Assembly: GCA_038231275.1 (NCBI GenBank)
Contig: JBBRLQ010000003.1
Location: 1-44,339 of the forward strand
Length of the DNA stretch: 44,339 nucleotides
Origin: Polyangiales bacterium
GTDB lineage: Bacteria > Myxococcota_A > Polyangia > Polyangiales > Polyangiaceae
Direction: 5' to 3'
Below, piece after piece: positions 2,557 through 18,522 of the stretch (the stretch's first letter is position 1; each line of letters opens with the position of its first letter). Both the position numbers and the translations under genes were made by a program. Under the pieces are notes generated by a model. It saw only the letters and a list, made by a program, of their open reading frames with translations. It searched no databases and was not told the DNA's origin.

Positions 2557-2672
2557 TTCCCATGCATACCTTGAACGCGAGGTGGGGGGCGGCTCGCCGG
2601 TCTCCCACATGGTCCGCCCCGCGTCTTTCTTGCGACGGCGGCGGCCAATCCCGGCACAATGGCGGGCAGGCC

Positions 2673-5198
2673 ATGGGAACCGCCATCGGGATCGATCTGG
2701 GCACGACGAACACGGTCGTCGCCGCCGTCCGCGACGGACGAGCCGTGACGCTCGAGGACGAGCAAGGTCGCCGCCTCATCCCGTCGGTCGTGTCGTTCCA
2801 CCCCAACGGGGGGATCCTGGTCGGTCAACCTGCCAAGGAGCGCCGCTACAACGACGCCACGAACACGATCTACTCGGTGAAGCGCCTCATCGGTCGCCCC
2901 TGGAAGTCGCCGGAGGTGCAGGAGTCGTTGGTTCGTTTTCCCTTCGAGCTGCGCGAGGGGCCGAAGCAGTCGGTCATGGCCCTCGCGCGCGGCGAGGAGT
3001 ACGCGCTCCCCGAGATCAGCGCGTTCGTGCTTCGGCGCGCGAAGCAAATCGCAGAGGCGCGACTCGGCGAGACGGTCGACCGCGCCGTCATCACCGTGCC
3101 CGCGAACTTCAACGATCTGCAGCGCGCCGCCACCAAGGTCGCCGGACGGCTCGCCGGGCTCGAGGTGATGCGGATCCTGAACGAGCCGACCGCGGCGGCG
3201 CTGGCGTACGGCCAGTCGATCGCGCAGTCGGAGCGCATCGCCATCTACGATCTCGGCGGCGGCACGTTCGACATCACGCTCCTCGATCTGTCGGGCAGCG
3301 TCTTCGAAGTTCTCGCGACCGCCGGCGACACGGCGCTCGGCGGGGACGACATCGACGTCCTCGTCGCGGATCGAATCGCCGCACAATTCAGGGAGATCCA
3401 TCGCTTCGACGCGCGCTCGAGCCCGGAGGCGTTCGGCCGCCTCCGCCTCCTCGCCGAGGATCTCAAGATTCGCCTCTCGACCGAGGAGGAGGTCGCCGTC
3501 AACGTGACCGACCTCGCGTTCGGCGAGGGTGGCGCGGCGCTGTCGATCCGGTTCGTCATGAACCGCGCGCAGCTCGAGCACCTCGCCAAGCCGCTCATCG
3601 ACAAGACGATCGAGGTGACCCGCTTCGCGATCGACACCATCGGGCAGCGGCTCGAGGGCTTCGATCGCGTCATCCTCGTCGGCGGCTCGACGCGGATGCC
3701 GCTCGCCGCGCGCGCCGTCGAGGCCTATTTCGGCAAGCCTCCGTACTTGCGGGTGAACCCTGACGAGGTGGTGGCGCTCGGCGCGGCGATCCAAGCGTAC
3801 TCGCTGGAGGGCTCGAAGAAGACCACCACGGCGGTGGCGATGGACGCGCCGCGTCCTCGCATGGCGACGCTGATGGGCGTCAGCGAAACGGAGATCACCG
3901 GCGTCACCCAGGTCACGCAGATTACGGGCGTCACGCAGGTCACCCAGGTCACCCAGGTCACGCAGACCGGCATCACGTCGACGACGATGAGCGGCGGACC
4001 GCCATCGATCACGCGCTCGTCGCCGAGCATCTTGAAGGGCTCGGTCACCCAGATGGGGGCGCCGCCGCCCTTGCCGCTGCGCTCGAAGCCACCGCCGAAG
4101 TCGACGTCGGTGTCGGCGTCGACGACCCTCGAGGACGACGCGTTCGCGGGCTTCGAGAGCATGCCACGCGGCCCCGCCACGAGGCCCGACGCAGCGCCGG
4201 GCAACGAGGGATTCCAGCTCGACGAGCCAGGCGCAGGCGACGAGCGCGCCGCGGCGTTCAAGCAGCGTCAGCCGGAGCTCGACGAGATCACGTTCAGCAA
4301 GCGCTCGCCGTCGCTGGTGGGCGCGGACGCCGCGAAGACCGGCTCCAAGCCGCCGCTACCGCCAAAGGCGCAAGGGCGCCCCGCGCCGCCCGCTCCGCCG
4401 CGTTACGACAAAGAAGATCCGTCAATGTCGTTCAACGTGCCGGACGTTCCCATCATGGAGGACGAGCCCAGCGTCGCTCGCGCGCCCGCGCCGCCCGCGC
4501 CGCCGCAGCGCATCGTGCCGCCGCCGAAGCCGCCCGCGCCGCCCGAGGATCGCTCCATCCAGTCGTTCACGATGCCGCTCGGCAACCAACCGCCGCCGCC
4601 GCCCGAGGAAATGCACATCCCTCCGCCGGTGCCGCAGCCTCCGCCGTCGACGACGCTCCCGCTGCGCGCGAGCCCTCCCAACGCGCAGATGCGCTCGGCC
4701 GATCCGCCGCCGTGGGACGCTCCGTCGATCGCGGGCGTCGTGATGGCGGCGGACGTCCGCGAGGGCATCCAGACCACGGTTACACCGCTGCTCATCGACG
4801 TGACGCCGCTCAGCTTGGGGGTCGAGACGGTAGGCGGCTACTGCGACGTGCTGATCCCCGCCAACTCACCGGTGCCCTGCGACAGGACGCGAACGTTCCT
4901 CACCACGAGCGACGGCCAGACGCTCGTGTGCGTGAACGTGTCGCAAGGGGAGGGGCGGCGCTTCGGCGAGAACACGTTCCTCGGCCAGCTCGAGCTGTCG
5001 GGCCTCGAGCCCAAGCCGCGCGGGGAGCTCGCGATCGCAGTGACCTTCGAGATCGACGCCGACGGCATCTTGAACGTGCGCGCCAAGGAGGTGGCCAGCG
5101 GGCGCGAGCGCCAGGCCCGGATGCGCTTGCTCGGCGCGACCGCCACCGAGGACATGTCGGCCATGCTGGCGCGGCAAGCGCGCCACGAGGTACACTGA
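2673..5198 (+). CDS. Atypical Hsp70/DnaK-family ATPase: NBD, a ~320-aa proline-rich insertion, then SBD-beta; no alpha-helical lid
   Basis: ATG at 2673 gives MGTAIGIDLGTTNTVVAAV (phosphate-1 motif). DLGGGTFDITLLD (phosphate-2) and ILVGGSTRMP (adenosine motif) are present. NPDEVVALGAAIQAY marks the NBD end. A P/S/T/A-rich insert follows (~3805-4775). Then come the conserved linker and SBD-beta: TPLLIDVTPLSLGVETVGG ... VTFEIDADGILNVRAKEVASGRE. The protein stops ~27 aa later. Confidence 0.85.
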   Translation: MGTAIGIDLGTTNTVVAAVRDGRAVTLEDEQGRRLIPSVVSFHPNGGILVGQPAKERRYNDATNTIYSVKRLIGRPWKSPEVQESLVRFPFELREGPKQSVMALARGEEYALPEISAFVLRRAKQIAEARLGETVDRAVITVPANFNDLQRAATKVAGRLAGLEVMRILNEPTAAALAYGQSIAQSERIAIYDLGGGTFDITLLDLSGSVFEVLATAGDTALGGDDIDVLVADRIAAQFREIHRFDARSSPEAFGRLRLLAEDLKIRLSTEEEVAVNVTDLAFGEGGAALSIRFVMNRAQLEHLAKPLIDKTIEVTRFAIDTIGQRLEGFDRVILVGGSTRMPLAARAVEAYFGKPPYLRVNPDEVVALGAAIQAYSLEGSKKTTTAVAMDAPRPRMATLMGVSETEITGVTQVTQITGVTQVTQVTQVTQTGITSTTMSGGPPSITRSSPSILKGSVTQMGAPPPLPLRSKPPPKSTSVSASTTLEDDAFAGFESMPRGPATRPDAAPGNEGFQLDEPGAGDERAAAFKQRQPELDEITFSKRSPSLVGADAAKTGSKPPLPPKAQGRPAPPAPPRYDKEDPSMSFNVPDVPIMEDEPSVARAPAPPAPPQRIVPPPKPPAPPEDRSIQSFTMPLGNQPPPPPEEMHIPPPVPQPPPSTTLPLRASPPNAQMRSADPPPWDAPSIAGVVMAADVREGIQTTVTPLLIDVTPLSLGVETVGGYCDVLIPANSPVPCDRTRTFLTTSDGQTLVCVNVSQGEGRRFGENTFLGQLELSGLEPKPRGELAIAVTFEIDADGILNVRAKEVASGRERQARMRLLGATATEDMSAMLARQARHEVH
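3894..3965 (+). repeat. Coding 9-nt tandem repeat (GTCAC[C/G]CAG)n, ~8 units, giving (VTQ)n/ITG inside the Hsp70 insertion
   Basis: Direct read: atcaccggc gtcacccag gtcacgcag attacgggc gtcacgcag gtcacccag gtcacccag gtcacgcag. Protein: ITGVTQVTQITGVTQVTQVTQVTQ. Confidence 0.9.
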
Positions 5199-5204
5199 CG
5201 GCGC

Positions 5205-5729
5205 ATGCCGGCGGCGTCGACCTTCATGGCGTGGGCAGAGTCGCTCCCCACGCTCAGCTACTACGCGATCCTGCGCGTCGCGCAGAACGCGTCGCAGGCC
5301 CAAGTGAAGGCGGCCTTCCACTCGTTCGCGCTGCGCGCGCACCCCGATCGCTACGTCGACCACGAGCCGGAGGTAGCCCGCTCCGCGGCGGAGGTCTTCA
5401 AGCGCGGCGTCGAGGCGTACAACATCCTGTCGAAGCCCGACCTGCGCGACAAGTACGACGTCGGCCTCGCCAAGGGAAAGCTGCGGCTCGATCCCGACGC
5501 GCTCCCGAGCGTGCCGCCGCCCCCGCCGAGGGAGAAGACGATCGAAGAGAGCGCGCAGACGCCGAAGGGCAAGCAGATCGCCGCGAAGGCCGATCGCTTC
5601 ATCGCCATCGGCCGGCTCGAGGACGCGCGCATCCAGATCGTCAACGCTACCCTCGAGGAGCCGTTCAACGACGAGCTGAAGGAGCGGCTGGCGGCGCTGT
5701 ACCAGGCGCTGTGCTCCGAGCCTCTCTGA
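5205..5729 (+). CDS. J-domain co-chaperone (DnaJ-like, 174 aa)
   Basis: SYYAILRVAQNASQAQVKAAFHSFALRAHPDRYVD...AEVFKRGVEAYNILSKPDLRDKYD is a canonical J-domain with the HPD motif. The gene starts 7 nt after the Hsp70 stop. Confidence 0.8.
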   Translation: MPAASTFMAWAESLPTLSYYAILRVAQNASQAQVKAAFHSFALRAHPDRYVDHEPEVARSAAEVFKRGVEAYNILSKPDLRDKYDVGLAKGKLRLDPDALPSVPPPPPREKTIEESAQTPKGKQIAAKADRFIAIGRLEDARIQIVNATLEEPFNDELKERLAALYQALCSEPL

Positions 5730-5759: not shown

Positions 5760-6365
5760 ATGAGCCTCGCGCACATCAAGCGGTGCCTCGACATCGCGGA
5801 GAAGGACATCGCCGCGGCCGTCGAGACGCGCGAGGCGTGCAAGGTGCTGCTCGATCACATCTCCAAGATTGCCGCCGCGAACCAGGGGGCGCCGAAGCTC
5901 TTGCTCGTGCTCGCCCGGATGGCGACGACCGCGTGTGACTGGGTCGACGGCGAGCTGCGCATCGAGATGGTCGGCGACGGCGAGGTCACGGTCGTCGAGC
6001 TGATGAGCGAGCTCGGCGGGGGGATGCGCGAGCGCGTGCTCCCGTCCTTCTCGCTTAACGTGCCGCTCGCCGAGTTCACGCGCGCGGTCGAGCGCGTGCC
6101 GCACATGATCGAGCCGCTCACCACCAAGGTCGCGTCGCCGCGGCGGGTGGTGTTCACCGCGAGCCAGGACGTTCGGAAGAGCACCGTTCCGCCGCCGCCC
6201 GTCGAGATCGGCAAGAGCTCGCTCTACGAGGCGCCCAGCGGCTCGCGCCTGCCGTCGGCCGTGCCGGCCGCGCCGCCTGCGCCGACCCCCGCAGCCGGTC
6301 GTCCAGCGGGACCGGGCAAGCCTCCGCCGCTCCCCCCGCGCGCGTCGCCGAAGCCGAAGACCTAG
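5760..6365 (+). CDS. Hypothetical protein (201 aa) with a C-terminal proline-rich tail
   Basis: Third same-strand ORF of the Hsp70/J cluster with high GC3. The tail ...GRPAGPGKPPPLPPRASPKPKT echoes the KPPLPPKA / APPPLPLRSKPPPK motifs in the Hsp70 insertion. Confidence 0.5.
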   Translation: MSLAHIKRCLDIAEKDIAAAVETREACKVLLDHISKIAAANQGAPKLLLVLARMATTACDWVDGELRIEMVGDGEVTVVELMSELGGGMRERVLPSFSLNVPLAEFTRAVERVPHMIEPLTTKVASPRRVVFTASQDVRKSTVPPPPVEIGKSSLYEAPSGSRLPSAVPAAPPAPTPAAGRPAGPGKPPPLPPRASPKPKT

Positions 6366-6402: not shown

Positions 6403-9400
6403 TCAGCCGTCGCGTTCGAGCTGCTCGAGGATCGCGCGCGCGCTGCCCAGCGTCGGATCATCGTCGATCGCGCGTTTGAGGAGCATGATCGCACGCTTCT
6501 TGTCGCCCTGCTGACGCGCGATCTCGCCGAGGTATTGGTACGCGAGCGCCTTGGACATCGGCGCGGCGGTCTTCAGCATCGTGATCGCGCGGAGCGCGCG
6601 CGTCGCGACCTCGTGCTGGCCGACGACCATCGCCACCGTGGCGAGCTCGCTCGCGACGACGCCGTTCTGGCTATCCATGTCGAGCGCGACCGAGAGGTGC
6701 GTGATCTCCTGCTGCGGATCTCCCTGCGCGCGCGCGATCTTCGCGAGGCGGTGGTAGAGCGGCGACTGTTCGCGGGACCGCCGCCCCTTGTTCTGCGCGA
6801 TGACCCCCATCACGAGCTCGCCGGCCTGCGGCGCGCGCCCGCTCAGGATGTACGCGTCGGCGAGGCGCACCAGGCAGTCGAGATCGGCGGGGCGGAGGGC
6901 GTGGGCCTCCTCGAGCGGCTGCACGGCCTCCTCGGGGTTGCCGCCTTGCTGAAGGAGAAGCGAGCCGGCGCGCATCAAGTGCGTGAAGCGGCCGGCCACC
7001 TCGAGCGACCCCTTGGCGTCCTCGAGGCTCATCTCGGCGAGCTCCTTGAACGCGGCGGTCTGCTCGTAGAGGAGCTCGAGGCGGCGGCGCAGCGCGGCGT
7101 TCGTCGGCGCGGTCATGCGCGCGCGTTCGAGGCCGCCTCGCGCGTCGCCGATCCTTCCCGCGCGCTCGCACGCGTCGGCGAGGCGGAGGGCGGTGTCCAC
7201 GACGTCGTCCCCTTCTTCGAGCGCGACGAGGCGCCGATACACGGCGCTCGCCGCGTCCCAGTGCTGCGCGACCTCCTCCAGCTGCGCGAGCGCGCGGAGG
7301 GCGTCCTTGTCCTTTCCGTCGTTCTTGAGGAGATCGCCGAGGAGCGAGCGCGCCCCGTCGTGATCGCCGATCTGAGGGAGCAGCTCGCCGAGGCGCAGCC
7401 GAACGGTGCGCCAGCGCGCGATGTCACCGGTCGCGGCGGCGCGCATTCCGATGCGCTCGAGGTACGACGCGAGGTCACGGATGTACGAGCTCCCGCCGGC
7501 GGTGTAGGCGAGCTCCATGTCGTCGAGCGCGCCGGCGTCGTCGCCAAGCTTGCTCCGCATGCCCGCGCGCTGGGCGAGGAGCGACGGAAGCGCGGGGTGG
7601 TTCGCGTCGCCTAGCCCGTCGATGGCGATGCTGAGCTCGTCGGAGGCGCCGCTGAAATCGCCGGCGGCCGTGAGCATCTGCACGAGCTCGCCGAGGAGCA
7701 CCTGATCGTCAGGTGCGATCGCGCGCGCCTCGCGGAGGATCCGCGCGCCGCTGACCGCGTCCTTTAGCTCGTTCTGGTAGATCGACGCGGCCTCTGCGAA
7801 GCGCGCGACCTTGTCGTCGGGATCGGTGCGCCCGCGCGCGTCGGTGACCGCCAGCTCGGCGAGCTTGGGCCACGAGCTCTTCTCGCGGTACGTCGACTCG
7901 AGGCGATCGCGGATCTGCGCGCTCTGTGGGCACGCTTTGAAGCCGAGCTCCAGCGCTCGCATCGCGCCCTCTTCGTCCCACGCGTCGGCGCGGAGCTGCG
8001 CGAGCTCCAGCGCGAGCTTCTCGGCCGCGGGGCCGGTCTCCAGCGCCAAGAGACGCTCGAGGATGTCCGCGCGATCTCCCGCCTCGCCTTCCACCGAGTG
8101 CAGGCGCGCCAGCGCCTCGAGCAGCGGCCGGTTCTGCGCGTCCCAGTCGAGGCCGACGTAGTAGACGTTCTTCGCCTCGATGCGATCGCGCTGCTCCAGC
8201 AGTGAGCCGAGCCGCACCGAGAGGGACGCGACGCTCGGGGCGTCGCTGCGGTCCTTCGCGCCCTCGAGCTGGCGCGCGAGGAGATCGGCGAGCTCGTCGG
8301 ATCGCCCGAGGCGCTCGAGGATGCTTGCGAGCTGGATCGCCGGCTCGAGCTGGCTCGGGTCCTCGTCGACGATCTCGCGAAGCGCGGGGATGGCCTCCTC
8401 GTCGCTCATTCCGAGCTCGCCCATCATCGCCTTCACCCGTTCGACACGGAGGCGCGAGCGCTCGGCAGGATCCTCCACGAGCTCGACGACGCGGCCCACG
8501 AGCTCGACGAGCTTCTGCGCGGCGCCCATCCGGCGGTAGACCGACAAGAGCGGGTCCCACGCCTCGCGGTCGGCCGGCTCGTTCTCGTGGAGCGCCTCGT
8601 ACGTCGCGGCGGCGAGCGGCAGGTCTCCGAGCTCCGCGGCGGCGAGGCGCGCGACGTCGAATCGAAGCTTGCGCGCCTCGTCGGGTTCGGCCAGCTCGGC
8701 GGCCGCGCGCTTGTGCTCGACCGCTTCGGTCAGATCACCCGCGGCCGCCCGCAGCTCCGACAGGCGCGACAACGCCCACGCGCGCGAGGCTTGATCCTCG
8801 TTGTCGCTCGCGAGGAGCTCGCGCAGGAGCGCCTCGGCCTGCGCGGCGTCCCCGAGCTTCTCGGCGGTCGCCACCGCCTCACGCAGCGCGTCCTCGGCGC
8901 CTCCGCTGGTCTGCCGCCATCTGCGGGCGAGGGCGTCAACGAGCGCGCGCTCGAAACCGGGCTCGCGTCCCACCTTCTCGTAGAGGGCGATCACCTGCGC
9001 GCTGTCCGGGTGAGCCTGCGCGGCGTCGCGGAGGATGCCCTCGGCGCGCGCCCAGTCCGCCTCACGATCGAGCGCCGCGACGAGGAGCTCGCACCCCTCC
9101 TCCGGCTTGCTCTTGCCCTTGAGGCGCAGGCTCGCGAGACGGAACAGAGGATCGCTGGTGAGCCGTCCTTCCCGCTCCTCGAGCTGCACACGCGCGGCGA
9201 GGATCCGCGCCTGGCTCTTTTCGTCACCGACGCGCTCGTAGATGCGATCGAGGGCGAAGAGCACGTCGGCCGAGCGCGTCCCGTGACGCTCCGCGCGCTC
9301 GTAGATCGCGGCGGCGCGCTTGTCGTCTTTCAGATCCTCTTCGACGACCGCGCCCATGCGGAGGAGCAGATCGCACGCGAGCTTCTGGCTTTTCGCCTCC

Positions 9401-12400
9401 TCGGCGCCGCCCGCCAGCTCGGCGAGGTGGTCGACGTATTTCAGCACGGCGCCCTGCTGCCGCGCGAGGCCGAGCGCGGCTTCGTGCGCGGCCGCCGAAT
9501 CGGGCGCGAGCTTCACGGCGCGGAGGCGTGCGGCGAGCGCGTCGTCGCGCCGACCCAGGTGCGTCTCCAGCACGCTCGCGAGCTCGCCCAGCCCTTCGGC
9601 GGCGGTGGCCGGCGGGATGCTCGCGCGCGCGAGGCGCCCTTCGAGCGAGCGCACCAGCGTCTGGTAATCGCCGCGCGCGCGCAATGCCGCCTCGAGCCGG
9701 CGGGCCTCGACCTCGCTGCCGATGGCGGTCTCGAGCGCGCTCTCGAGGATCTCCTTCGCGCGCTCGTTCTCCCCCTGACGCTCGGCGATGAACGAAAGCT
9801 CGAGGAGCACCTCGCTGCGGACGACGGGAGGATCCGGCCTGGTGCCCTCTTGTCGTCGCAGCACGGCGAGGAGGGCGCGGTAGGAGCGCTCGGCGCGCTC
9901 CAGCTGACCGTCGTCGCGCGCCAGCTCCGCGAGGGCGCGGAGGATCTCAGGGTTGGCCGGATCGATGCGCGTCGCCTGATCCAGCTCGACCAGCGCCCGC
10001 GCGCGATCGCCGACCGCGAGATCGAGGCGCGCCAGGTGGTAGTGGACCGGCGCGCGCTCCTTCGGGCGTCGCCCCGCGAAGCCGTCGATGAGCTTTCGCA
10101 GGAGATCGCGGGCTTCGTCGAAGCGCTGCGCGGCGCCGAGCGCGTCCCCGAGGGCAAGGCGGATCGCGCGATCCTCCGGCTCGAGGTCCGACGCTTGCTC
10201 GAGCAGTGGGATCGCCGCCTGCGGCTCGTCGCCGCGCATCTGGAGATCCGCGGCCTCACGGAGCCGCGCGAGGCGAGTCGCCTTGTCGGGCGCGTGGGCC
10301 GCGCCATCGGTGAGGAGCGCGGCGAGCGCCTTCCAGTCCGATTTGGCGCGGTAGACCTCGGCGAGTCGTGCGCGCACGCCCTCCGCGTCGGGATCGGCGG
10401 CGATCGCCTCCTCGAGGCGCGCGCGCGCCTGGTCGTCGTTGCCAGCCGACACGAGCGCCGCGGAGAGCCGCAGCGTGACCTCGGCGCGCGCCTCCGGTTT
10501 GCACGCCGTGTGGAGCTGCTCGAGGTAGCGCGCGGCGTCTTCGAAACTCTTCTTCTGGGTGGAGAGGCGCGCGAGCGCGTCGAGCGACTCGGGGCGCGCG
10601 TCGATCGCGATGACCTTCTGATGGTGGGCGATCGCGGCGTCGACGTCCTTCAGGTTCTCCTCGGCGACGCGCGCAGCCCGTGCCCATAGGTCGGCGGCGG
10701 ACGCCTGCTCCTCCGCCTTCTCGGCGCGCGTGGCCTGCGTCGCCAAGAGCTCCGCGAGCTCGTTGTGCCGCCGCTCGCGCTCGAGCACCGCCACCAGCTC
10801 CTGCACGGTCGCGGTGTGACGCGGATCCTCGTCGAGGCTCTCGCGGAGGATGCGAATGCACCCCTCGAGATCCCCGAGCAGCGTGAGGAGCGGCGCGGCC
10901 TCCAGGCGCAGATCGACGCGCTTCGAAGGGCTCTTGGCGGCGGCGATTTGCTTGCGCTTGAGAGCGAGAAGCTCGTCCTTCTGGCCCTTCGCCTCGTAGA
11001 GCTCGACGAGGTGATGGACCGCGCGAACGTCCTCGGCGTCCTCGGTGAAGAGCGCCATGTAGAGCGCCACCGCGCGATCGTGATCGCCGAGGCGCTCCGC
11101 CGCGATGCGCGCCGCGTCGTGACGCATTCCGCGCGACGTCTGGAGCCGGAACGGCAGGCGCGCCGTGTCGACCAGCAGCTCCACGATCCGCTCGGCGTCA
11201 CCCTCTTCGTCGTGAATTCGTACGAGCTCGCGCAGCGCCCACTCGACGGCGCCGCTCGGCGCGCCGGGGCTGCCGAGGGTCACCGGGCCGTCGGGATCGG
11301 AGCCAATCCAGCGCTCGGTCCCGAGCTTCAGCATCCGCTCGAGGATCGACTTGGCGAGAGAGCGATCGCCCACCGAGCTCGTCGTGATCTCGGCGGCCTC
11401 GCGGAGCAGATCGAGATCGCCGCCGGTCGCCGTCGACAGGCGCAGGAGGCTCTCGACGAGGGGGCGCCCCTTGCTGCGACGCTGGAGTTGCGCGAGCTCG
11501 AAGAGGAGATCGGCGTTCGCGGCGTCGTACGCGAGGGCGCGCACGAAGGCCGCCTCCGCCGCGTCCGGATCGCCGCGACGGTCGCGGTGCCATAGCGCCA
11601 CGCGCCCTTCGGCGTCGCGCGCGATCGCTGCGGGAAGGTCGGGCCTCTCGCCCACCGCCGCTGCGAACGCCGCCGTCGCTGCGTCCCATGCGCCGGGCGT
11701 GGTCGCGGCTTCTTCCACGGCTTCGACGAGGAGCGGCTCGAGGCGATCGGTGGCGCGCGACGACTCGAGGACGACCTTGGCCGCCGCGTCCCACCGCATC
11801 ACGCGCGCCGCGACCCGCACGGTCGCGCGCGCCGCGTCGAGATCGCGCGGCGCGTCTTGCGCCACGCGCTGGTACGCGACCAGGGCGGCGCGCGGATCGT
11901 CGAGCTTCGTCTCCAGGACCTCGGCCATGCGGAACCGCAGACCGGGCAGCCACGCCTCGACCGTCGAATGGACCTCGCGCGCCTCGATCGCCTCGCGCTG
12001 GGCTTCGGCGAGCGATCGCCACTGGCGGGTCGCGTCGGCCAGACGATGGAGCTGCGCCTCGACGTCGCGGGTCTGCGGGGCGACCAGGAACGCCCGGCGC
12101 GTCGCGGCGAACGCCCCCTCGAGGTCTCCTGCGCGTTCCTCGCTGATCTTCGCCGCCTCGAGCAGGACGACGACCTTGTCACCGTCGTCGACGGAGGTGC
12201 CGAGCCGGTGCTCGGTCAGCTCGAGGATGCGCGCCCACTCGTCGCACACACGATAGGCCTCGAGGAGCACCTCGACCGCCGCCGCGCGGTGCTCGGCGCG
12301 CGGCAGGAGCGCGTGCAGTCCGGCGCGGGCCCCCGCCTCGCGCGCGTCGGCGTGCAGCGCCGCGCCGTAGCTGTCAATCGCGTCCTTTGCGCCGTCGAGG

Positions 12401-15400
12401 TGCTCGCGCTGCACGTCGCCGAGCTCGCGGAGGAGCTGGGCGCGCGCGTCGGCCTCGGTCGTGCGATCGGCGGCGCGATCGAGGAGCTCCGCGAGCTCGC
12501 CCCACTTGCGCGCGCCCTTCAGGAGTCCGATCAGCGCGCGCGTGCTCTCGTCGGACTCGCCGAACTCGCTCTCGACCTCGCGCCAGGCGACGATGGCCTC
12601 ATCGATCTCGCCGAGCTCGCGGCTCTGGATGGTCGCGACGCGCACGCGGTCGGCGCGCGCATCCCCGCCGGGCAGTTGCGCGCTCGCCCGCTTCTTCAGG
12701 ATGTCGATGAGACGGCGCCAACGACCGTCCTTGCCGAGCAGCTCCACGAGCCCGTTCAGTGCTGCCTCGTCGGTCGGGAAGAGCTCGAGGAGCGACTCCC
12801 ACGCCCACACAGCGCGATCGGTCTCCGCCAGATCGGTCGCCAGGCGCGCCGCGGTGGACAGGACGCGACGGCGCCCCTCCGCCTCCGGCTCCAGGAGCGA
12901 GAGGCGCTCGAGGACGTCGAGCCGCTCGCGCACGCGACCGGCGTCCGCCAGGAGCGGCTCGATGCGGCGGCACGCGTGGTAGAGCGGCGTCTCCGCGACC
13001 GGCGACACGAGGAGGATGCGGAAAAATAGGTCGATCGCGCGATCGGCTTCGTGCAAGCGATCGGCGTGGACGACGCCCGCCTGCATCAACAGATCGACCC
13101 GCAGCGCGTCGTCGGTGCAATCGTCGGCGGCCGCGACGAGGACCTCGGCGAGCCGATCCTCGCGGTGCACGCGGGCGGCGATCTCGGCGAGCTTGTCGCG
13201 GTGCTCGGCCACGTCGGGCTCGAGGAGCACCAGCGCGACGTAGTGCTCCATCGCCTGCGGCTCGTTCGAGAGCTGCTGGTAGAGGGTCGCGATCTGCTGG
13301 TGACGTCGAATGCGCTCTTTGGCGTTCTTCACCGCCTCGAGCTCGACCTCCAGGATCCGCACGAGATCGGCGTCGCGCCCCTGCTCGACGTACCTCTCCT
13401 TGAGGAGGGCCGCGGCGCGCTGTCGGACGAGGGTGCGCTTCTGCCCGCCCACGGGGGGGAGCGAGTCGCGCCGCGAGACGGGCGGCCGGTCGCTGTCGGC
13501 GCTCGTCACCGGCGGCGCGACGACCGACTCGCGCAGCTCGGCGTGCGGCGGCGCGGCGGCGAGGACCCGCTCGAGGAGACGCGAAACGTCGAGCGGCGCG
13601 GCGTCGCTCTGCGTGTCGCGGGCCAGCATGTCCTCGACCACGATGAGCGCGTTGGTGGCGTCGCCCAGCTCGTCGAGCCATAGCGCCGCGATCCGCGCGC
13701 GCGACTCTTGCGAGGTCTTGTGCGGCATGCGCCCGAGCTGTCCCTGGAGGAGCTGGATCAGCTCGCGATGGCACCCGTGGCGCTCGTAGAGCCGCTCGAG
13801 CGACGCCGAGAGGCGCGCGTTGCCGGGCTTCAGCGCGAGGAGCTGCTCCAAATACCCGATGGCGCGCTTCGAGTGGTTGGCGAAATCCTTGGCGATCTGC
13901 GCGGCGTCTTCGAGCAGCTCCACCTTCTTCGCCTCGGTCGCGGCGACGAGCGCGCGATCGTAGAGCGCGAAGAGATCGTCCCAGCGCTCGGCCGCATCGA
14001 AGAGGAGCTTCAAACGATCGAAGGCCCACGCCTCGGTGGGATCGATCTCGAGGATGCGCTCGAGGATGCTGACGACGCGATCGGAGTCTTCGAACCACTC
14101 CTCGTAGAACGCGACGGCGCGCTTGCCGAGCTCGAGCGCCTCGTCTTTTTCCATCGGCGTCGCGAGCGCCTCGTGGAAGAGCTTGGCGACGCCGTCCGGC
14201 TCCTTGCGCGCGCGGGCCAGGCCCTCGGCGCGATCCCACAGCGCCGCCACGCCCGGCATCTCCGCCGCCGCGCGAAGCACGGCCTCGTACGCCTCGGCGT
14301 CACGGCTCTGATTCTCGAGCAGGTCGAGGAGGCGCTCGAACCAGTCTTGGCGCCGCTCGACCGGCGCGGCGCGATCACCGAGGAGGCAATCGAGGATGCG
14401 AACGCGCACTGCGTCGTCGGCGACGTCGAACGTCTTCTCGAGCATCTGCGCGGCCGGCGCGCGTGTCTGCGGCATCGCCAGGAGCCGACTCGCGAGCGCC
14501 AGCGCGGCGTCGTCGTTTGGCGCGCTCTCGAGGACGCTCGCCACGGACGCCAGCGCCTCCACCAGGCGCTCGGTGCGATCGAGGAGGATGGTCGCGATCT
14601 CCAGATCGAGGCGCGCGCGCGCTTCGCCGTCCGAGCGATCGCGTCGGGCCACGAGCGCGTCGATGGCCCCCTGCACGTCACCCGTCGCCAGCGCGAGCCG
14701 CGATACTGCGCCGAGCGACTCCGCGTTCTCCGGGTCGATGCCGAGCACGCGCTTGTGGAGCTCCAGCGCCGCCGGCAGATCGTGCAGGCGCGCCTCTTCC
14801 GTCTCCGCCCACGCCGCGAGCGCGTGGAGGCGTTCGCCTTCGGCGGCGTGATCGACGCGCCATTTGCACAGCCAGCGTCGATCGTCCGCCGTCCCGCCGT
14901 CGGGCCTCGCCGCGAGCAGCCCCTCGAACGCCGCCACCGCCGCGCGCGTCCGCGCCTCGTCGAGCCCGCCGGCGCCCAGGACGTCACGGTAGGCGGCGGC
15001 CGCGCGCTCATGGTTCCCCGGATCGGCGGAGAGCACGCGCGCCTTTGCCATTCGAAGCTCGGAGTGCAGGGCCTCCGCGTCGGCGTCGCCTTCGGTCGCC
15101 GCGATCGCAGCGTCCACAGCGTGCTCGAGATCGGTCGCCGCCCCCGCCGCGCCGGCCAGCCGTTCGAACGCGGCGAGCACCTCCCGGTCGCGCGGATCCA
15201 ACGCGAACGCCTGCGCGGTCGCGGCGACGGCCCCCGTCACGTCCCCCAGGTGCTCGGCGCGGACGCGCGCGACGCGCATGAGGAGCGCCGCGCGACCCTC
15301 GGCAGGACCGCTCGCGAGGAGCACGCGGAACAGCGCCGGTAGCTCGCCGAAATCGCCGGCGCGCTCGCACACCTCCGCGAGCCTCTCGGAGGCCTCGAGA

Positions 15401-18400
15401 TCGTCCGGCAGGAGCGCGCGTACTTTGGTGTAGAGTGCACGCGTCGCCTCGTCGTCCGCCGCGGCGACCGCGATCCGTGCCGCGCGCCGATAGGTCTCGC
15501 CTCCCGCGAGCCGGTCCTCGCCCTTCTCGGTCTCCACCACCGCGAGCTTCTCGAGCCACGCGATCTGATCGCGCGGATCGGCCGCCTCGAGGGCGCGACG
15601 CGAAAGCACGCGCTTCTCGAGATCGGGATCGCCGAGCGCGACGGCCACGTGCTCCACGGTCTCCAGCTCGGCGGTTTCGGTCGCCGGGTCATCCAGGAGG
15701 ATCGCCGCCTGCGCCGCTGCGCGCGCCTCCTGGCCGTGCGCCGCCGAGAGCTCCGCCAGCTGCGCGCGCGTGCGCAGCGCCTCTTCCGGCGTGACGCGCG
15801 CGAGGTGGCCTTCGAGCAGCTCGCCGAGCTCGCCCCACGCGGCGCCCTCCGTGTAGAGATCGACGAGCGCGGCGTAGGCCTTGCGATCGTCGGGCTCGTT
15901 CGCCAGCGCGGCGCGGTACGCCTCGATCGCCGCGGCGGGATTGCCCAGCTCGCCGCGCTCCAGGACGCCGATCGAATGGAGAAGCTCGCGCTTGCGCTTG
16001 TCGTCGACGCCGCGATCGAGCGCCGCGCGGTAGAGCGCCACGCGCTCGCCGGGGCTGCCCTGATCCTTCAAGAGCTCGTCGACGCGGCCGAGGATGTCGT
16101 GGTTGGAAGGCTCGAACGCCAGCGCCCGCCGCAGCGCAGCCAGCGCGCCCGCCACGTCTCCGCACTCCGCCAGCGCTTCGCCTGCCACGCGCGCGAGCAG
16201 CACGAGCTCTGCCGAGTCGATCGCCCGATCGCCGAGCGCCTTTGCCAGGAGCGCCGCGCGCCGCTTCGGATCGATCCCTGCGTTCGCGAGGCGCGCCATC
16301 CGCTCGAGCCACGGTCCGAGCGCCGCGCCTGTGGTCACCGCCTCGGCGAGCCCCTTGCCGGCGAAGTCGATCGCGCGCGCAAGGTACGCGGGGCTCTCCT
16401 CGGCGACCTGCGTGGCCTCTTCGAGCGCGCCGAGGCGCTCGTCCGCGCTCGAAGACAGCTGCGCGCGCATCTCGAGCACGCGGAGGAGGCCCTGCGTGTT
16501 CGCTTCCGCGCGGTACACCGGCTCGAGCACGCTGGCCGCGACGAGGCGCTGGTCGCCCACCGAGAGCATCTTTTCGAGCGCCGCACGCGACGTCTTCTCG
16601 GTAGGGTCGGCAGTGAGCGCGCGCCTGAACGCGTCGATCGCGAGGTCCACCTCGCGCGTGCGCTGAAGCCGCACCAGCGCGAGGCGCGCGTAGATCGCGG
16701 CGCGCTCCGCCTCGGGCGCGAGCTGCGCGTCGGCGGCGAGCGTCCCTGCCAGATCCGGCCACGCCTTCTGCTGCTCGAGGAGCGGCATCCACTGCACGAA
16801 CGCCTCGCGCGACGCGCCGTATTTTTCGACGACCGCGCGCCACGCGTGGCTGGCTCGCTCGACGTCCTGCGTCTTGGTCGTCAGCACCTCCGCGGCGCGC
16901 ACACACAGCTCGCGCGCCTCGCGGGGGCTCTCTGCGTCTTTGCCGCGCTCTTCGAGCACGTACGCCAGATCGAGCCAGCTCCCCGCCGCCTCGTAAAGCG
17001 GCTCCAGGGCAGCGAGCGCCCGAGGACGCGACGCCGTGTCGACGAGCGCGCGCCACGCCGCGATGGCCCGCGGCGCGTCCTTCAGCACCCGGAACGCCAG
17101 CTCCGCGAGGCGCTCGTTCGCCATGCGACGGCGCTCGAGATCGGGGTCGAGCTGTCCGACCTTCTCGAGCACGTCGGCGAGCGCGCGGTGGTCCCCTTCG
17201 CCCTCGTAAATCTCCGCGAGCGCGCGCGCCGCCTTGAGCGTCGCCGTCGCGTCGACCGCCGCCGCCGCGAGCACGCTGATGAAGGTCGCCTTCGCCTTCT
17301 TCACGTCGCCGCCGATCCGGTAGAGCTCGCCCATCTCCGCGGTCAACCGCGCGCGCACCGCGCTCTCTCGCGCCGCGGTGCCCACGCGCTGGAGCGTTCG
17401 CGCGGCGTCCAGGATCTTTCCGATCTGCAGCGCGAGCGAGCCGTAGCGAAGTCGCACGTCGTCGTCCGACGGATCGAGCGCGATCGCCTGCTCGAACGCC
17501 TCGAACGCGCCTTCGAGATCGTCGATCCGATCTTGCTTCAAAATGCCGATGCGCTTCAGCACGGCCAGCCGCTTGGGCCCCCGCGTGTGCTCGAGCTCGA
17601 TCGCGAGGAACTTTGCCACGTCGCTCGGGAGCCCGGTCTGCTCGTTGGCGTCCGCGAGCGCCGACGCCGCGCGCGCCGCGAGGCCCTTCACGCCGAGGAG
17701 CTTCGATGCGACGCGCCGCGCCTCGTCGTGGCCGGGCTCCTTCGCGAGGATCGCCTCGATGTGCGGCATCGTCCGCTCGGGCTCGTGCAGCTGCCCGGCA
17801 TAGAGCTCGACGAGCCGCGCGCGCAGGCGCAGCTGCTCGTCCTCGGGGAGCGGCGGCTCGGTCGTCAGCGCCTGCTCGAGGAGGCGCGCAACGTCGCGGT
17901 GACGGTTCGCCTTCACGTACTTCGCCTCGAGCATCTCGCGCGCGCCGGAGTCGGCGGGGTCGAGCTTGAGGAGCTGCTGGTAGAGCTCGATCGCCTTCTC
18001 GTCGCCGCCGGTCGTCTTCTCGTAGATCTCCGCGGCGCGCTTCAGGAGCGCGATCTGCTCGGGCTTCGCGCGGTGCTGCGCGGCGCTGGCGTAGAGATCG
18101 GCGACCTTCTTGGGATCACCGACCTTGGTGAGCAGCACCTCGAGCCGATCGAACGCCGCCGCGTGGGCCGGCAGCGCCGCGAGCGATCGTTCGAGGTAGC
18201 TCGTGGCGCCGAAGTCGTCGCCGAGCACGTCGCCAAAGAACGTCGCCGCGCGGTACAAGAACTCGGCGAGCACCGCCGGCGTCATCGTCTTCAGGCGCTT
18301 GCCTTGCGCCACCGACTCGTACGCGAACGCGAGCTCGCTCATGCGCTCGTCGCGCTGCGCGGCGCGATGCAGCTCCTCCCACGTGTCCGGTCGAAGCTGC

Positions 18401-18522
18401 CCGCGACTGAGCGCGAGCAGCATGGTGTCGAGGATCGACTCCTCGCCTTCGAGCTTCTTCTCGAAATCGAACGTCGCCTGGGGAGGGGGCATGGAGCCCC
18501 GTTGACGAGGAGGATTCTGCAT
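6403..18522 (-). CDS. Giant TPR-like alpha-solenoid repeat protein (4039 aa, single uninterrupted ORF)
   Basis: A 12,120-nt open frame on the - strand. Translation is Ala/Leu/Glu/Arg/Asp-rich but contains K, Y, W, F, Q, N, H, M throughout, with TPR-like periodicity (e.g. ...AIELYQQLLKLDPADSGAREMLEAKYVKANRHRDVARLLEQAL...). All overlapping + strand ORFs are R/L/G/V-only antisense artefacts. No catalytic motif was recognised. Confidence 0.8.
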   Translation of the reverse strand: MQNPPRQRGSMPPPQATFDFEKKLEGEESILDTMLLALSRGQLRPDTWEELHRAAQRDERMSELAFAYESVAQGKRLKTMTPAVLAEFLYRAATFFGDVLGDDFGATSYLERSLAALPAHAAAFDRLEVLLTKVGDPKKVADLYASAAQHRAKPEQIALLKRAAEIYEKTTGGDEKAIELYQQLLKLDPADSGAREMLEAKYVKANRHRDVARLLEQALTTEPPLPEDEQLRLRARLVELYAGQLHEPERTMPHIEAILAKEPGHDEARRVASKLLGVKGLAARAASALADANEQTGLPSDVAKFLAIELEHTRGPKRLAVLKRIGILKQDRIDDLEGAFEAFEQAIALDPSDDDVRLRYGSLALQIGKILDAARTLQRVGTAARESAVRARLTAEMGELYRIGGDVKKAKATFISVLAAAAVDATATLKAARALAEIYEGEGDHRALADVLEKVGQLDPDLERRRMANERLAELAFRVLKDAPRAIAAWRALVDTASRPRALAALEPLYEAAGSWLDLAYVLEERGKDAESPREARELCVRAAEVLTTKTQDVERASHAWRAVVEKYGASREAFVQWMPLLEQQKAWPDLAGTLAADAQLAPEAERAAIYARLALVRLQRTREVDLAIDAFRRALTADPTEKTSRAALEKMLSVGDQRLVAASVLEPVYRAEANTQGLLRVLEMRAQLSSSADERLGALEEATQVAEESPAYLARAIDFAGKGLAEAVTTGAALGPWLERMARLANAGIDPKRRAALLAKALGDRAIDSAELVLLARVAGEALAECGDVAGALAALRRALAFEPSNHDILGRVDELLKDQGSPGERVALYRAALDRGVDDKRKRELLHSIGVLERGELGNPAAAIEAYRAALANEPDDRKAYAALVDLYTEGAAWGELGELLEGHLARVTPEEALRTRAQLAELSAAHGQEARAAAQAAILLDDPATETAELETVEHVAVALGDPDLEKRVLSRRALEAADPRDQIAWLEKLAVVETEKGEDRLAGGETYRRAARIAVAAADDEATRALYTKVRALLPDDLEASERLAEVCERAGDFGELPALFRVLLASGPAEGRAALLMRVARVRAEHLGDVTGAVAATAQAFALDPRDREVLAAFERLAGAAGAATDLEHAVDAAIAATEGDADAEALHSELRMAKARVLSADPGNHERAAAAYRDVLGAGGLDEARTRAAVAAFEGLLAARPDGGTADDRRWLCKWRVDHAAEGERLHALAAWAETEEARLHDLPAALELHKRVLGIDPENAESLGAVSRLALATGDVQGAIDALVARRDRSDGEARARLDLEIATILLDRTERLVEALASVASVLESAPNDDAALALASRLLAMPQTRAPAAQMLEKTFDVADDAVRVRILDCLLGDRAAPVERRQDWFERLLDLLENQSRDAEAYEAVLRAAAEMPGVAALWDRAEGLARARKEPDGVAKLFHEALATPMEKDEALELGKRAVAFYEEWFEDSDRVVSILERILEIDPTEAWAFDRLKLLFDAAERWDDLFALYDRALVAATEAKKVELLEDAAQIAKDFANHSKRAIGYLEQLLALKPGNARLSASLERLYERHGCHRELIQLLQGQLGRMPHKTSQESRARIAALWLDELGDATNALIVVEDMLARDTQSDAAPLDVSRLLERVLAAAPPHAELRESVVAPPVTSADSDRPPVSRRDSLPPVGGQKRTLVRQRAAALLKERYVEQGRDADLVRILEVELEAVKNAKERIRRHQQIATLYQQLSNEPQAMEHYVALVLLEPDVAEHRDKLAEIAARVHREDRLAEVLVAAADDCTDDALRVDLLMQAGVVHADRLHEADRAIDLFFRILLVSPVAETPLYHACRRIEPLLADAGRVRERLDVLERLSLLEPEAEGRRRVLSTAARLATDLAETDRAVWAWESLLELFPTDEAALNGLVELLGKDGRWRRLIDILKKRASAQLPGGDARADRVRVATIQSRELGEIDEAIVAWREVESEFGESDESTRALIGLLKGARKWGELAELLDRAADRTTEADARAQLLRELGDVQREHLDGAKDAIDSYGAALHADAREAGARAGLHALLPRAEHRAAAVEVLLEAYRVCDEWARILELTEHRLGTSVDDGDKVVVLLEAAKISEERAGDLEGAFAATRRAFLVAPQTRDVEAQLHRLADATRQWRSLAEAQREAIEAREVHSTVEAWLPGLRFRMAEVLETKLDDPRAALVAYQRVAQDAPRDLDAARATVRVAARVMRWDAAAKVVLESSRATDRLEPLLVEAVEEAATTPGAWDAATAAFAAAVGERPDLPAAIARDAEGRVALWHRDRRGDPDAAEAAFVRALAYDAANADLLFELAQLQRRSKGRPLVESLLRLSTATGGDLDLLREAAEITTSSVGDRSLAKSILERMLKLGTERWIGSDPDGPVTLGSPGAPSGAVEWALRELVRIHDEEGDAERIVELLVDTARLPFRLQTSRGMRHDAARIAAERLGDHDRAVALYMALFTEDAEDVRAVHHLVELYEAKGQKDELLALKRKQIAAAKSPSKRVDLRLEAAPLLTLLGDLEGCIRILRESLDEDPRHTATVQELVAVLERERRHNELAELLATQATRAEKAEEQASAADLWARAARVAEENLKDVDAAIAHHQKVIAIDARPESLDALARLSTQKKSFEDAARYLEQLHTACKPEARAEVTLRLSAALVSAGNDDQARARLEEAIAADPDAEGVRARLAEVYRAKSDWKALAALLTDGAAHAPDKATRLARLREAADLQMRGDEPQAAIPLLEQASDLEPEDRAIRLALGDALGAAQRFDEARDLLRKLIDGFAGRRPKERAPVHYHLARLDLAVGDRARALVELDQATRIDPANPEILRALAELARDDGQLERAERSYRALLAVLRRQEGTRPDPPVVRSEVLLELSFIAERQGENERAKEILESALETAIGSEVEARRLEAALRARGDYQTLVRSLEGRLARASIPPATAAEGLGELASVLETHLGRRDDALAARLRAVKLAPDSAAAHEAALGLARQQGAVLKYVDHLAELAGGAEEAKSQKLACDLLLRMGAVVEEDLKDDKRAAAIYERAERHGTRSADVLFALDRIYERVGDEKSQARILAARVQLEEREGRLTSDPLFRLASLRLKGKSKPEEGCELLVAALDREADWARAEGILRDAAQAHPDSAQVIALYEKVGREPGFERALVDALARRWRQTSGGAEDALREAVATAEKLGDAAQAEALLRELLASDNEDQASRAWALSRLSELRAAAGDLTEAVEHKRAAAELAEPDEARKLRFDVARLAAAELGDLPLAAATYEALHENEPADREAWDPLLSVYRRMGAAQKLVELVGRVVELVEDPAERSRLRVERVKAMMGELGMSDEEAIPALREIVDEDPSQLEPAIQLASILERLGRSDELADLLARQLEGAKDRSDAPSVASLSVRLGSLLEQRDRIEAKNVYYVGLDWDAQNRPLLEALARLHSVEGEAGDRADILERLLALETGPAAEKLALELAQLRADAWDEEGAMRALELGFKACPQSAQIRDRLESTYREKSSWPKLAELAVTDARGRTDPDDKVARFAEAASIYQNELKDAVSGARILREARAIAPDDQVLLGELVQMLTAAGDFSGASDELSIAIDGLGDANHPALPSLLAQRAGMRSKLGDDAGALDDMELAYTAGGSSYIRDLASYLERIGMRAAATGDIARWRTVRLRLGELLPQIGDHDGARSLLGDLLKNDGKDKDALRALAQLEEVAQHWDAASAVYRRLVALEEGDDVVDTALRLADACERAGRIGDARGGLERARMTAPTNAALRRRLELLYEQTAAFKELAEMSLEDAKGSLEVAGRFTHLMRAGSLLLQQGGNPEEAVQPLEEAHALRPADLDCLVRLADAYILSGRAPQAGELVMGVIAQNKGRRSREQSPLYHRLAKIARAQGDPQQEITHLSVALDMDSQNGVVASELATVAMVVGQHEVATRALRAITMLKTAAPMSKALAYQYLGEIARQQGDKKRAIMLLKRAIDDDPTLGSARAILEQLERDG

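Follow-up and report, generated by a model that had tools for sequence, protein, structure and literature searches.

A DnaK-derived Hsp70 without a lid and with a long disordered insertion ahead of its interdomain linker, encoded beside a small J-protein in a Polyangiales bacterium

In Hsp70 chaperones a short linker allows the beta part of the substrate-binding domain (SBD-beta) to dock onto the nucleotide-binding domain (NBD), and this docking is the basis of Hsp70 allostery. The stretch of DNA analysed here (the window; 44,339 nt, positions 1 to 44,339 of contig JBBRLQ010000003.1 in the Polyangiales bacterium assembly GCA_038231275.1) contains an Hsp70 gene at 2673-5198 in which a long insertion separates these two domains and most of the lid is missing. 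Three prokaryotic Hsp70 types, DnaK, HscA and HscC, are recognized in Mayer's 2021 review, which also describes how specialised Hsp70s co-evolve with dedicated J-proteins (PMC8215388). A 2026 review reports many 'DnaK derivates' in Myxococcus xanthus and its relatives, in which the lid is shortened or deleted and further regions are present at the N or C terminus, counts up to 15 DnaK-related genes in Myxococcota and refers to this set as unexplored 'dark matter' (PMC13580251). The much shorter SBD-alpha of MXAN_2747 had already been noted by Pan et al. (PMC8265645). For lidless DnaK, Buczynski 2001, Mayer 2000 and Moro 2004, as cited in PMC4595643 and PMC8215388, describe retained allosteric coupling together with raised peptide on- and off-rates.

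An original prediction, made from the letters of the window alone, had described the gene as a lidless Hsp70 with a proline-rich, disordered insertion between NBD and linker. The present analysis leads to a wider reading, which is held with a probability of about 0.5: the gene would encode a working, specialised Hsp70 of a DnaK-derived family restricted to the Polyangia, paired with its own small J-protein, binding clients in a lidless, fast-exchange manner and carrying a motif-bearing tether between its domains. The parts of the gene are as follows (aa, amino acids; GC3, G+C content at third codon positions; pLDDT, predicted local distance difference test score of the AlphaFold2 model).

2673..5198, + strand: atypical Hsp70 gene, 841 aa (open reading frame, Pfam HSP70 match, DnaK alignment, GC3 ~0.90; stop codon TGA at 5196-5198)
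2673..3821, + strand: NBD, aa 1-383 (collinear with DnaK 1-387; pLDDT ~90+)
3822..4787, + strand: insertion of ~322 aa (aa 384-705), 966 nt (no DnaK match, proline-rich, predicted disordered)
4785..5138, + strand: hydrophobic interdomain linker PLLID and SBD-beta basket, aa 705-822 (aligned to DnaK 390-506; pLDDT 79-96)
5139..5195, + strand: brief C-terminal tail whose single helix, aa 825-837, corresponds to lid helix A (DnaK alignment, AlphaFold2 model)

The reading frame is open from 2562 to 5198 on the + strand, and the ATG at 2673 was taken as the start because it fits the family consensus N-terminus (M..AVGIDLGTTN) and because a divergent DUF2314 gene starts at 2610 on the - strand. The Pfam HSP70 match (E=1.4e-156) is split over two stretches, and a phmmer comparison with all PDB chains resolved these into aa 1-383, equivalent to E. 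coli DnaK 1-387, and aa 706-834, equivalent to DnaK 390-517 (linker, SBD-beta and helix A); the same comparison returned no DnaK match for the stretch between aa 383 and 706. The insertion had been placed at ~3805-4775 with a length of ~970 nt, which the alignment to DnaK refines only slightly to 966 nt at 3822-4787. In the AlphaFold2 model, built from a 108-sequence alignment, both NBD and SBD-beta come out as confident domains (pLDDT about 80-97) and a single terminal helix spans aa 825-837. The C-terminus lies 39 aa past the DADGILNV motif and 23 aa past the last beta-strand, at approximately DnaK residue 524, so that the predicted early end of the protein, shortly after SBD-beta and without helices B-E, was found as described. 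Judged from the alignment and the model, helix A is all that is left of the lid, helices B-E being absent, and the stop codon falls where helix B would begin. Since the J-protein gene starts 6 nt past the Hsp70 TGA, there is no room for a lid encoded downstream.

Functional residues were compared across 108 family members, or across 18 diverse C-terminal regions, and those named here as conserved are invariant or nearly so. They comprise D8, K70, E171, D193, T198 and D200, which serve catalysis and phosphate binding, P143, R151 and K155, which belong to the proline switch and the allosteric set, the J-domain contact R167, the linker residues L706, L707 and D709 (DnaK D393) and the pocket residues F742 (F426), Q749 (Q433) and V752 (V436), together with D797 (D481). 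The DnaK alignment and these residues bear out the claim that the nucleotide-binding motifs and the linker/SBD-beta segment (TPLLIDVTPLSLGVE...VTFEIDADGILNV) are intact. The arch residues are altered with respect to DnaK, M404 to V and A429 to T or A. A family-specific, invariant cysteine, C736, is found in the PVPC segment of SBD-beta (window 4878-4880) at the position of DnaK T420. Two further cysteines, C724 and C753, are present in the window protein, and a second cysteine is frequent in the family within the segment GGYCD. These SBD-beta cysteines could be redox-sensitive; M. xanthus mutants in non-canonical Hsp70s are sensitive to oxidants (PMC8265645).

Homologues were collected in two ways. 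The first set consisted of the best 120 matches among 5.8 billion proteins, which are 587-859 aa long and share ~65-78% NBD identity with the window Hsp70; both landmark motifs could be located in 116 of them. In all 116 the NBD terminates near residue 375 and is followed by an insertion of 86-344 aa (median 198), the spacing of SBD-beta is fixed and the tail after the D.DGIL.V motif measures 39-50 aa, being exactly 40 aa in 91 of the 116. The tail itself is conserved in the homologues and ends in '..M.aRQa.h.v'. For the second set, one genome per GTDB species was scanned with family-specific patterns, which yielded 57 family loci, all with an insertion (79-581 aa) and a short tail (20-52 aa). 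The survey that had been suggested as a check on the insertion thus found it in 116/116 measurable proteins and 57/57 loci, all of Polyangia-type Myxococcota, with varying lengths. The same scan also yielded 23 lower-identity Hsp70 loci, most of them ordinary dnaK-dnaJ operons; these ordinary DnaK proteins served as an internal control and gave insertions of 7-8 aa and tails of 136-218 aa by the same measurement. All 57 loci belong to Polyangiaceae, Labilithrix, Sorangium or unclassified 'Myxococcales', including the cultured Labilithrix luteola DSM 27648, and the species-representative scan placed none of them in Myxococcia genomes. In a neighbour-joining tree of NBD and SBD-beta, the proteins with insertion and short tail form one clade apart from ordinary DnaKs, and the insertion and the short tail are therefore ancestral to a sizeable family. 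A member of this family can be defined as having ~80 or more aa inserted between GAAIQA helix and LLIDVTP linker, no more than 52 aa of tail past D.DGIL.V, the invariant PVPC segment and a small J-protein encoded downstream, and the window Hsp70 displays each of these features. Two of the 23 lower-identity loci (L082, 7596-9206; L085, 8834-10426) encode lidless Hsp70s of 526-532 aa without an insertion and with tails of 44-51 aa. They come from uncultured delta-proteobacterial and Myxococcales metagenome-assembled genomes, and one has a small J-protein gene downstream. They were considered as possible ancestors of the insertion family, but no clear link was seen and they sit on long branches near ordinary DnaKs.

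The insertion starts directly after AIQAYSLEGSKK, with which the last NBD helix ends, and stops directly before the hydrophobic linker PLLIDVTPLSLG. Its proline content is 20% vs 4% in the rest of the Hsp70. In the Hsp70 frame its GC3 is 0.89 and no stop codon occurs, which indicates that it is translated in frame. The disorder expected of it is reproduced by AlphaFold2, which leaves aa ~391-712 without secondary structure at pLDDT values below 50; no structured domain is hidden within the insertion of the model. Five elements can be distinguished in it.

3888..3965, + strand: 9/27-nt tandem repeat encoding ITGVTQVTQITGVTQVTQVTQVTQ, (VTQ)n (Tandem Repeats Finder; degenerate copies in homologues P0001 and P0002)
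4137..4175, + strand: conserved island 1, DAFAGFESMPRGP (near-identical in the three closest homologues, with variable flanks)
4272..4322, + strand: conserved island 2, PELDEITFSKRSPSLVG (related to the motif TF.K.AP.[LI][ST]F of relatives)
4401..4475, + strand: conserved island 3, RYDKEDPSMSFNVPDVPIMEDEPSV (window copy of the family motif [LIVM]-[ST]-F-[DEN]-x-P)
4545..4583, + strand: conserved island 4, EDRSIQSFTMPLG (three closest homologues)

In the three closest homologues these four islands, DAFAGF..PRGP, PELDEITFSKRSPSL, PRYD.EDPSMSFNVPDVP...DEPSV and PEDRSIQSFTMPLG, are near-identical, and the proline-rich spacers between them diverge. Across the whole family the insertions are hypervariable and cannot be aligned, with a composition of 23% proline and 16% alanine. 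A phenylalanine-centred motif, [AP]-x-[LIVM]-[ST]-F-[DENS]-x-P, recurs in them, for example as RGAPQLTFDPP, KAPAVISFS or GKPLVFDVP and in the window as EDPSMSFNVPDVP; the alternative motif P-[TE]-EFDAELxLP is found in another subclade. A regular expression for the motif matched 80 of 116 insertions, compared with ~7 expected from composition-preserving shuffles, and a hidden Markov model (HMM) of the motif reached at least 5 bits in 95/155 insertions vs 0/155 shuffled ones, figures that overstate the enrichment, as the sequences are related and the seeds were taken from the same set. Sequence and model nevertheless suggest, as a qualitative picture, a disordered chain with embedded short linear motifs and not a mere spacer.

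The genes following the Hsp70 gene are listed here (TPR, tetratricopeptide repeat).

5205..5729, + strand: small J-domain protein, 174 aa (Pfam DnaJ, E=1e-14; starts 6 nt past the Hsp70 stop codon)
5760..6365, + strand: 201-aa protein with a proline-rich C-terminus (between the J-protein and TPR genes; variably present)
6403..18522, - strand: giant TPR protein, 4039 aa (convergent; open reading frame, TPR-type NCBIfam matches)

The J-protein consists of an N-terminal helix, a J domain with the HPD motif, a conserved 'GKLRLD' segment, a short proline-rich linker and a C-terminal three-helix module. A homologue of 156-189 aa (most of them 172-180 aa) is encoded immediately downstream of the Hsp70 in 50 of the 57 informative family loci, in both major subclades, and its C-terminal region is conserved ('..KADRLI..G.L..AR.QL.SA.Q.EP.N.EL.ERL..LYEALALEP'). 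AlphaFold2 predicts the J-protein with a mean pLDDT of 88 and folds residues 120-171 into three helices. Among the Foldseek matches J domains rank first and full-length alignments were obtained solely to HscB (4it5, 1fpo, 3bvo), at weak similarity (template modelling score ~0.4, high root-mean-square deviation, E = 0.03-0.17); the NCBIfam HscB match covers the J domain only and scores 21.9 vs a cut-off of 198. In its layout the J-protein therefore resembles HscB by architectural analogy, and membership of that family is not supported by these matches. The Hsp70 and J-protein genes lie in one reading frame in the window, as they do in the three contigs looked at first. A fusion of the two proteins by stop-codon read-through was nevertheless discarded, as the frame is shared in 15/50 loci, which is the level of chance. 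The 201-aa protein has no Pfam, NCBIfam or PADLOC match; homologues occupy the same position in ~10 related loci, and it could belong to the module as an additional member.

TPR proteins of 4032, 4041 and 4040 aa are encoded at the position of the window's giant TPR gene in three unrelated contigs, each with its own set of upstream neighbours. A convergent TPR gene is present in 20/22 informative loci of the window's subclade. With a cut-off of E<=1e-3 the TPR family comprises 2894 cluster representatives; at E<=1e-30 there are 720 50%-identity clusters, and the cluster names returned are from Polyangiaceae only. Its members fall into length classes of ~4000-4060, 3880-3910 and 2570-2650 aa, all with the C-terminal ~1200 aa in common; lengths kept so constant are unusual for a repeat protein of ~4000 aa. 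The N-termini (aa 1-40; 18400-18522 on the - strand of the window, ATFDFEKKLEGEE) share the pattern [ST]-F-[DE]-x-x-L-E-x-E-E. This N-terminal motif ('ATFDFEKKLE') looks by eye like the phenylalanine motif of the insertions, but an equation of the two is not supported, as the motif HMM reached at least 5 bits in only 1/30 N-termini. On a groundwater contig (L087) a 2612-aa member of the TPR family lies ~7 kb downstream of an ordinary Hsp70 gene that has two full-length DnaJ genes behind it (1-2646, 8001-15839), which may be a coincidence or a second Hsp70-TPR neighbourhood. In M. xanthus the gliding machinery has a giant TPR scaffold in the cytoplasm, GltI/AgmK (MXAN_4863), which is annotated with either 3822 or 4132 aa (PMC3169522, PMC11761067); the TPR protein of the window is similar in size and TPR content and may be its counterpart. 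A place of the TPR gene in a glt gliding cluster was rejected: no glt genes occur in the window, and the neighbours beyond are UbiA, Wzy_C-TPR and HEAT proteins.

Taken together, these features suggest the following mode of action. ATP and the J-protein would still drive the cycle, because the insertion, being located between the last NBD helix and the linker, can loop out while linker and SBD-beta dock. Loss of the lid would speed up both binding and release of clients and would no longer sterically exclude bulky or folded ones. By a rough random-coil polymer estimate, a spacer of ~320 residues would set the effective concentration of NBD and SBD for each other to ~0.1 mM, and the lowered concentration could make interdomain coupling weaker or conditional. 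The insertion motifs probably serve to dock the chaperone to a partner; client selection would fall to the three-helix module of the J-protein, as it falls to that of HscB in the case of IscU. In the most speculative step, the convergent TPR protein of ~4040 aa would be the most likely such partner or client in the window's lineage. That it is a partner or client of the Hsp70/J-protein pair there is put forward only tentatively, with the odds leaning against it.

Part of this was contained in the original prediction, whose suggestion of a specialised, possibly low-affinity client interaction is plausible in the light of what Buczynski 2001 and Mayer 2000 (as cited in PMC4595643 and PMC8215388) reported for DnaK lacking its lid. 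The accompanying term 'holdase-like' was its weaker part: invariant catalytic, J-interface and linker residues and a J-protein encoded in the same operon argue for a cycle driven by ATP and the J-protein over passive holding. The architecture was thus given correctly and turned out to be family-wide, but the account was incomplete in that it had passed over the motifs of the insertion, the place of the J-protein in the unit and the giant TPR gene that recurs alongside.

Several observations weigh against the proposed function, which is inferred from sequence and models. AlphaFold2 docks neither the linker nor any insertion motif onto a domain. The enrichment of the motif is inflated as stated above, and the [LI]-[ST]-F-[DE]-x-P type is not universal, one subclade having EFDAELxLP and some members neither. 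An adjacent J-protein is missing from 7/57 informative family loci. The convergent TPR gene is found in 0/28 informative loci elsewhere in the family, and it is likewise missing within 10 kb of the family Hsp70 of Labilithrix luteola. The TPR and Hsp70 genes are convergent and hence not co-transcribed, so that inherited synteny could account for their adjacency. One 3888-aa member of the TPR family has no adjoining Hsp70 or J-protein; this, together with the restriction of the TPR neighbour to one subclade, makes the association lineage-specific.

One alternative is that the protein is a generic helper, a redundant DnaK derivative with a weak role in stress tolerance, whose low-complexity spacer drifts neutrally and whose TPR neighbour is a matter of inherited synteny. 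An insertion that is hypervariable in length (79-581 aa) and sequence and a TPR neighbour confined to one subclade would be expected under such an explanation, and so would the mild sporulation and oxidative-stress phenotypes that are all that deletions of non-canonical Hsp70s cause in M. xanthus (PMC8265645) and the large complement of DnaK-related genes in Myxococcota, up to 15 (PMC13580251). Neutral drift does not explain, however, why every member of a deep monophyletic family has retained the insertion with zero reversions to a short junction, why the insertion contains conserved islands and motifs, why the tail is fixed at ~40 aa or why a dedicated J-protein with a conserved non-J module has been kept, and the explanation is considered rather improbable.

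A self-regulating Hsp70 is a further possibility, and an unlikely one. Here the insertion motifs (K/R-x-A-P-x-[LI]-[ST]-F) or the linker would act as a tethered pseudo-substrate, a surrogate lid or auto-inhibitor that is displaced by clients or by the J-protein. The hydrophobic core of the motif follows a basic residue, roughly as in DnaK-binding peptides, proline-rich peptides are known substrates of the DnaK SBD (PMC8215388), Hsp70 linkers can fill the SBD of a neighbouring protomer (PMC3696110, PMC4608358) and the pocket is otherwise uncovered when the lid is absent. Yet AlphaFold2 places no segment of the insertion in the pocket and gives all insertion blocks pLDDT values below 50, the residues after the phenylalanine are acidic, which is disfavoured in DnaK-binding sites, and the motifs vary between subclades whereas the pocket residues are invariant. 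An artefact or pseudogene, in which a frameshift, a mis-assembly or a decaying dnaK creates an apparent insertion and a premature stop, has a negligible chance of being right: its sole hint is the low complexity with tandem repeats, which is prone to assembly errors, against the same layout in >150 independent homologues from many assemblies, an in-frame GC3 of 0.89 without stops, a J-protein gene 6 nt past the stop that leaves no lid codable and a conserved tail sequence. Neither a frameshift or assembly error nor a homologue with an encoded lid, which had been named as observations that would overturn the prediction, was found in the window gene or its family. By its sequence, the window Hsp70 is a real, conserved family member and neither a sequence error nor an ordinary DnaK, and a specialised chaperone with its own J-protein is the reading carried forward here.

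Some observations concern the surroundings of the gene. The DUF2314 gene (1201-2610, - strand) is divergent from the Hsp70 gene, with an intergenic region of 62 nt. A DUF2314 gene is also found nearby in Myxococcales bacterium 68-20, with gltB and gltD separating it from the Hsp70 gene. Positions 937-1007 of the window, downstream of the DUF2314 gene, hold a perfect tandem repeat of a hexanucleotide, (TCCGAC) x 11.8, which would read (SD)n or (RL)n in overlapping reading frames. This may be a contingency tract or one prone to slippage, or else a piece of an unannotated repeat protein. An antisense reading frame of high GC3 at 3725-4261 was put down to the GC-rich coding strand and had no other support. 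A role in anti-phage defence was dropped after PADLOC returned no match.

With hundreds of disordered residues ahead of the linker and no lid, but with every allosteric residue and a dedicated J-protein kept, the family offers a natural test of how far the Hsp70 cycle needs interdomain tethering and lid closure. It also provides a defined and tractable example among the unexplored 'DnaK derivates' of complex bacteria (PMC13580251), with Labilithrix luteola DSM 27648 available as a cultured member. Should the link to the TPR protein be true, a new dedicated chaperone-client pair would be at hand for a protein of ~440 kDa.

Compared with canonical DnaK, represented by the E. coli protein and by MXAN_3192 and MXAN_6671 of M. 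xanthus, the window Hsp70 has a collinear NBD, the same catalytic, J-interface and allosteric residues, the linker aspartate and the SBD-beta pocket. In canonical DnaK, however, the linker (DVLLLD) joins NBD and SBD directly, whereas PLLID in the window lies ~322 aa away from the NBD; DnaK has a lid of helices A-E and a C-terminal tail, of which helices B-E and that tail are missing here; and its partner is a full DnaJ instead of a J-protein of 174 aa. In NCBIfam the window Hsp70 scores best with the models for DnaK and HscA but reaches none of the curated cut-offs (528.6 vs 648 and 515.8 vs 822.55 for the DnaK equivalogs PRK00290 and TIGR02350; 492.8 vs 620 and 489.2 vs 708.55 for HscA). HscA has an N-terminal extension (PMC8215388) and an isc/hscB context, neither of which is seen here. 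HscC lacks NBD residues 76-101, bears an insertion in loop L1,2 and measures 550-580 aa (PMC8215388), as opposed to an NBD and SBD-beta collinear with DnaK in a protein of 841 aa. HscA and HscC are both without an insertion between NBD and linker, and in neither are helices B-E lost completely. The HscA/HscB and HscC/DjlC pairs are similar to the window pair in combining a diverged Hsp70 and a modified lid with a dedicated small J-protein encoded alongside (PMC8215388), and the layout of the window J-protein, a J domain and a C-terminal helical bundle in about 171-174 aa, resembles that of HscB. On these sequence comparisons the window Hsp70 is a DnaK derivative and not a DnaK, HscA or HscC. 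It is doubtful that it represents a fourth bacterial kind beside these three, a long-reach chaperone with a tether of 80-580 residues and an HscB-like J-protein, dedicated to assembling or remodelling a cytoplasmic TPR scaffold of ~4000 aa that would possibly be the Polyangia counterpart of GltI, the focal-adhesion scaffold in gliding motility.

Hsp110 and Grp170 are likewise members of the Hsp70 superfamily with long disordered insertions (PMC13580251), but theirs lie inside SBD-beta and the lid, the linker is degenerate and the lid extended, whereas the window protein has a canonical linker and no lid. The engineered lidless DnaK(1-507) is truncated at a similar point, just past SBD-beta and helix A; the form in the window differs from it in being natural and conserved and in having a long disordered insertion and a dedicated J-protein. 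The searchable literature texts contained no description of an insertion between NBD and linker, of the insertion-bearing family, of its J-protein or of the TPR neighbourhood. Similar proteins have been described among the Myxococcota 'DnaK derivates' such as MXAN_2747 and MXAN_3016, which are also derived from DnaK, have shortened or deleted lids and in some cases are encoded near J-proteins of their own (MXAN_2745, MXAN_3015). The published additions to these proteins are at the N or C termini and not between NBD and linker. With a DnaK-like NBD, a shortened or deleted lid and an origin in a complex myxobacterium genome, the window Hsp70 has the traits by which 'DnaK derivates' are recognized (PMC13580251). 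The proteins described here are thus not categorically new; they form a well-defined, conserved and uncharacterised family within the little-studied myxobacterial 'DnaK derivates'.

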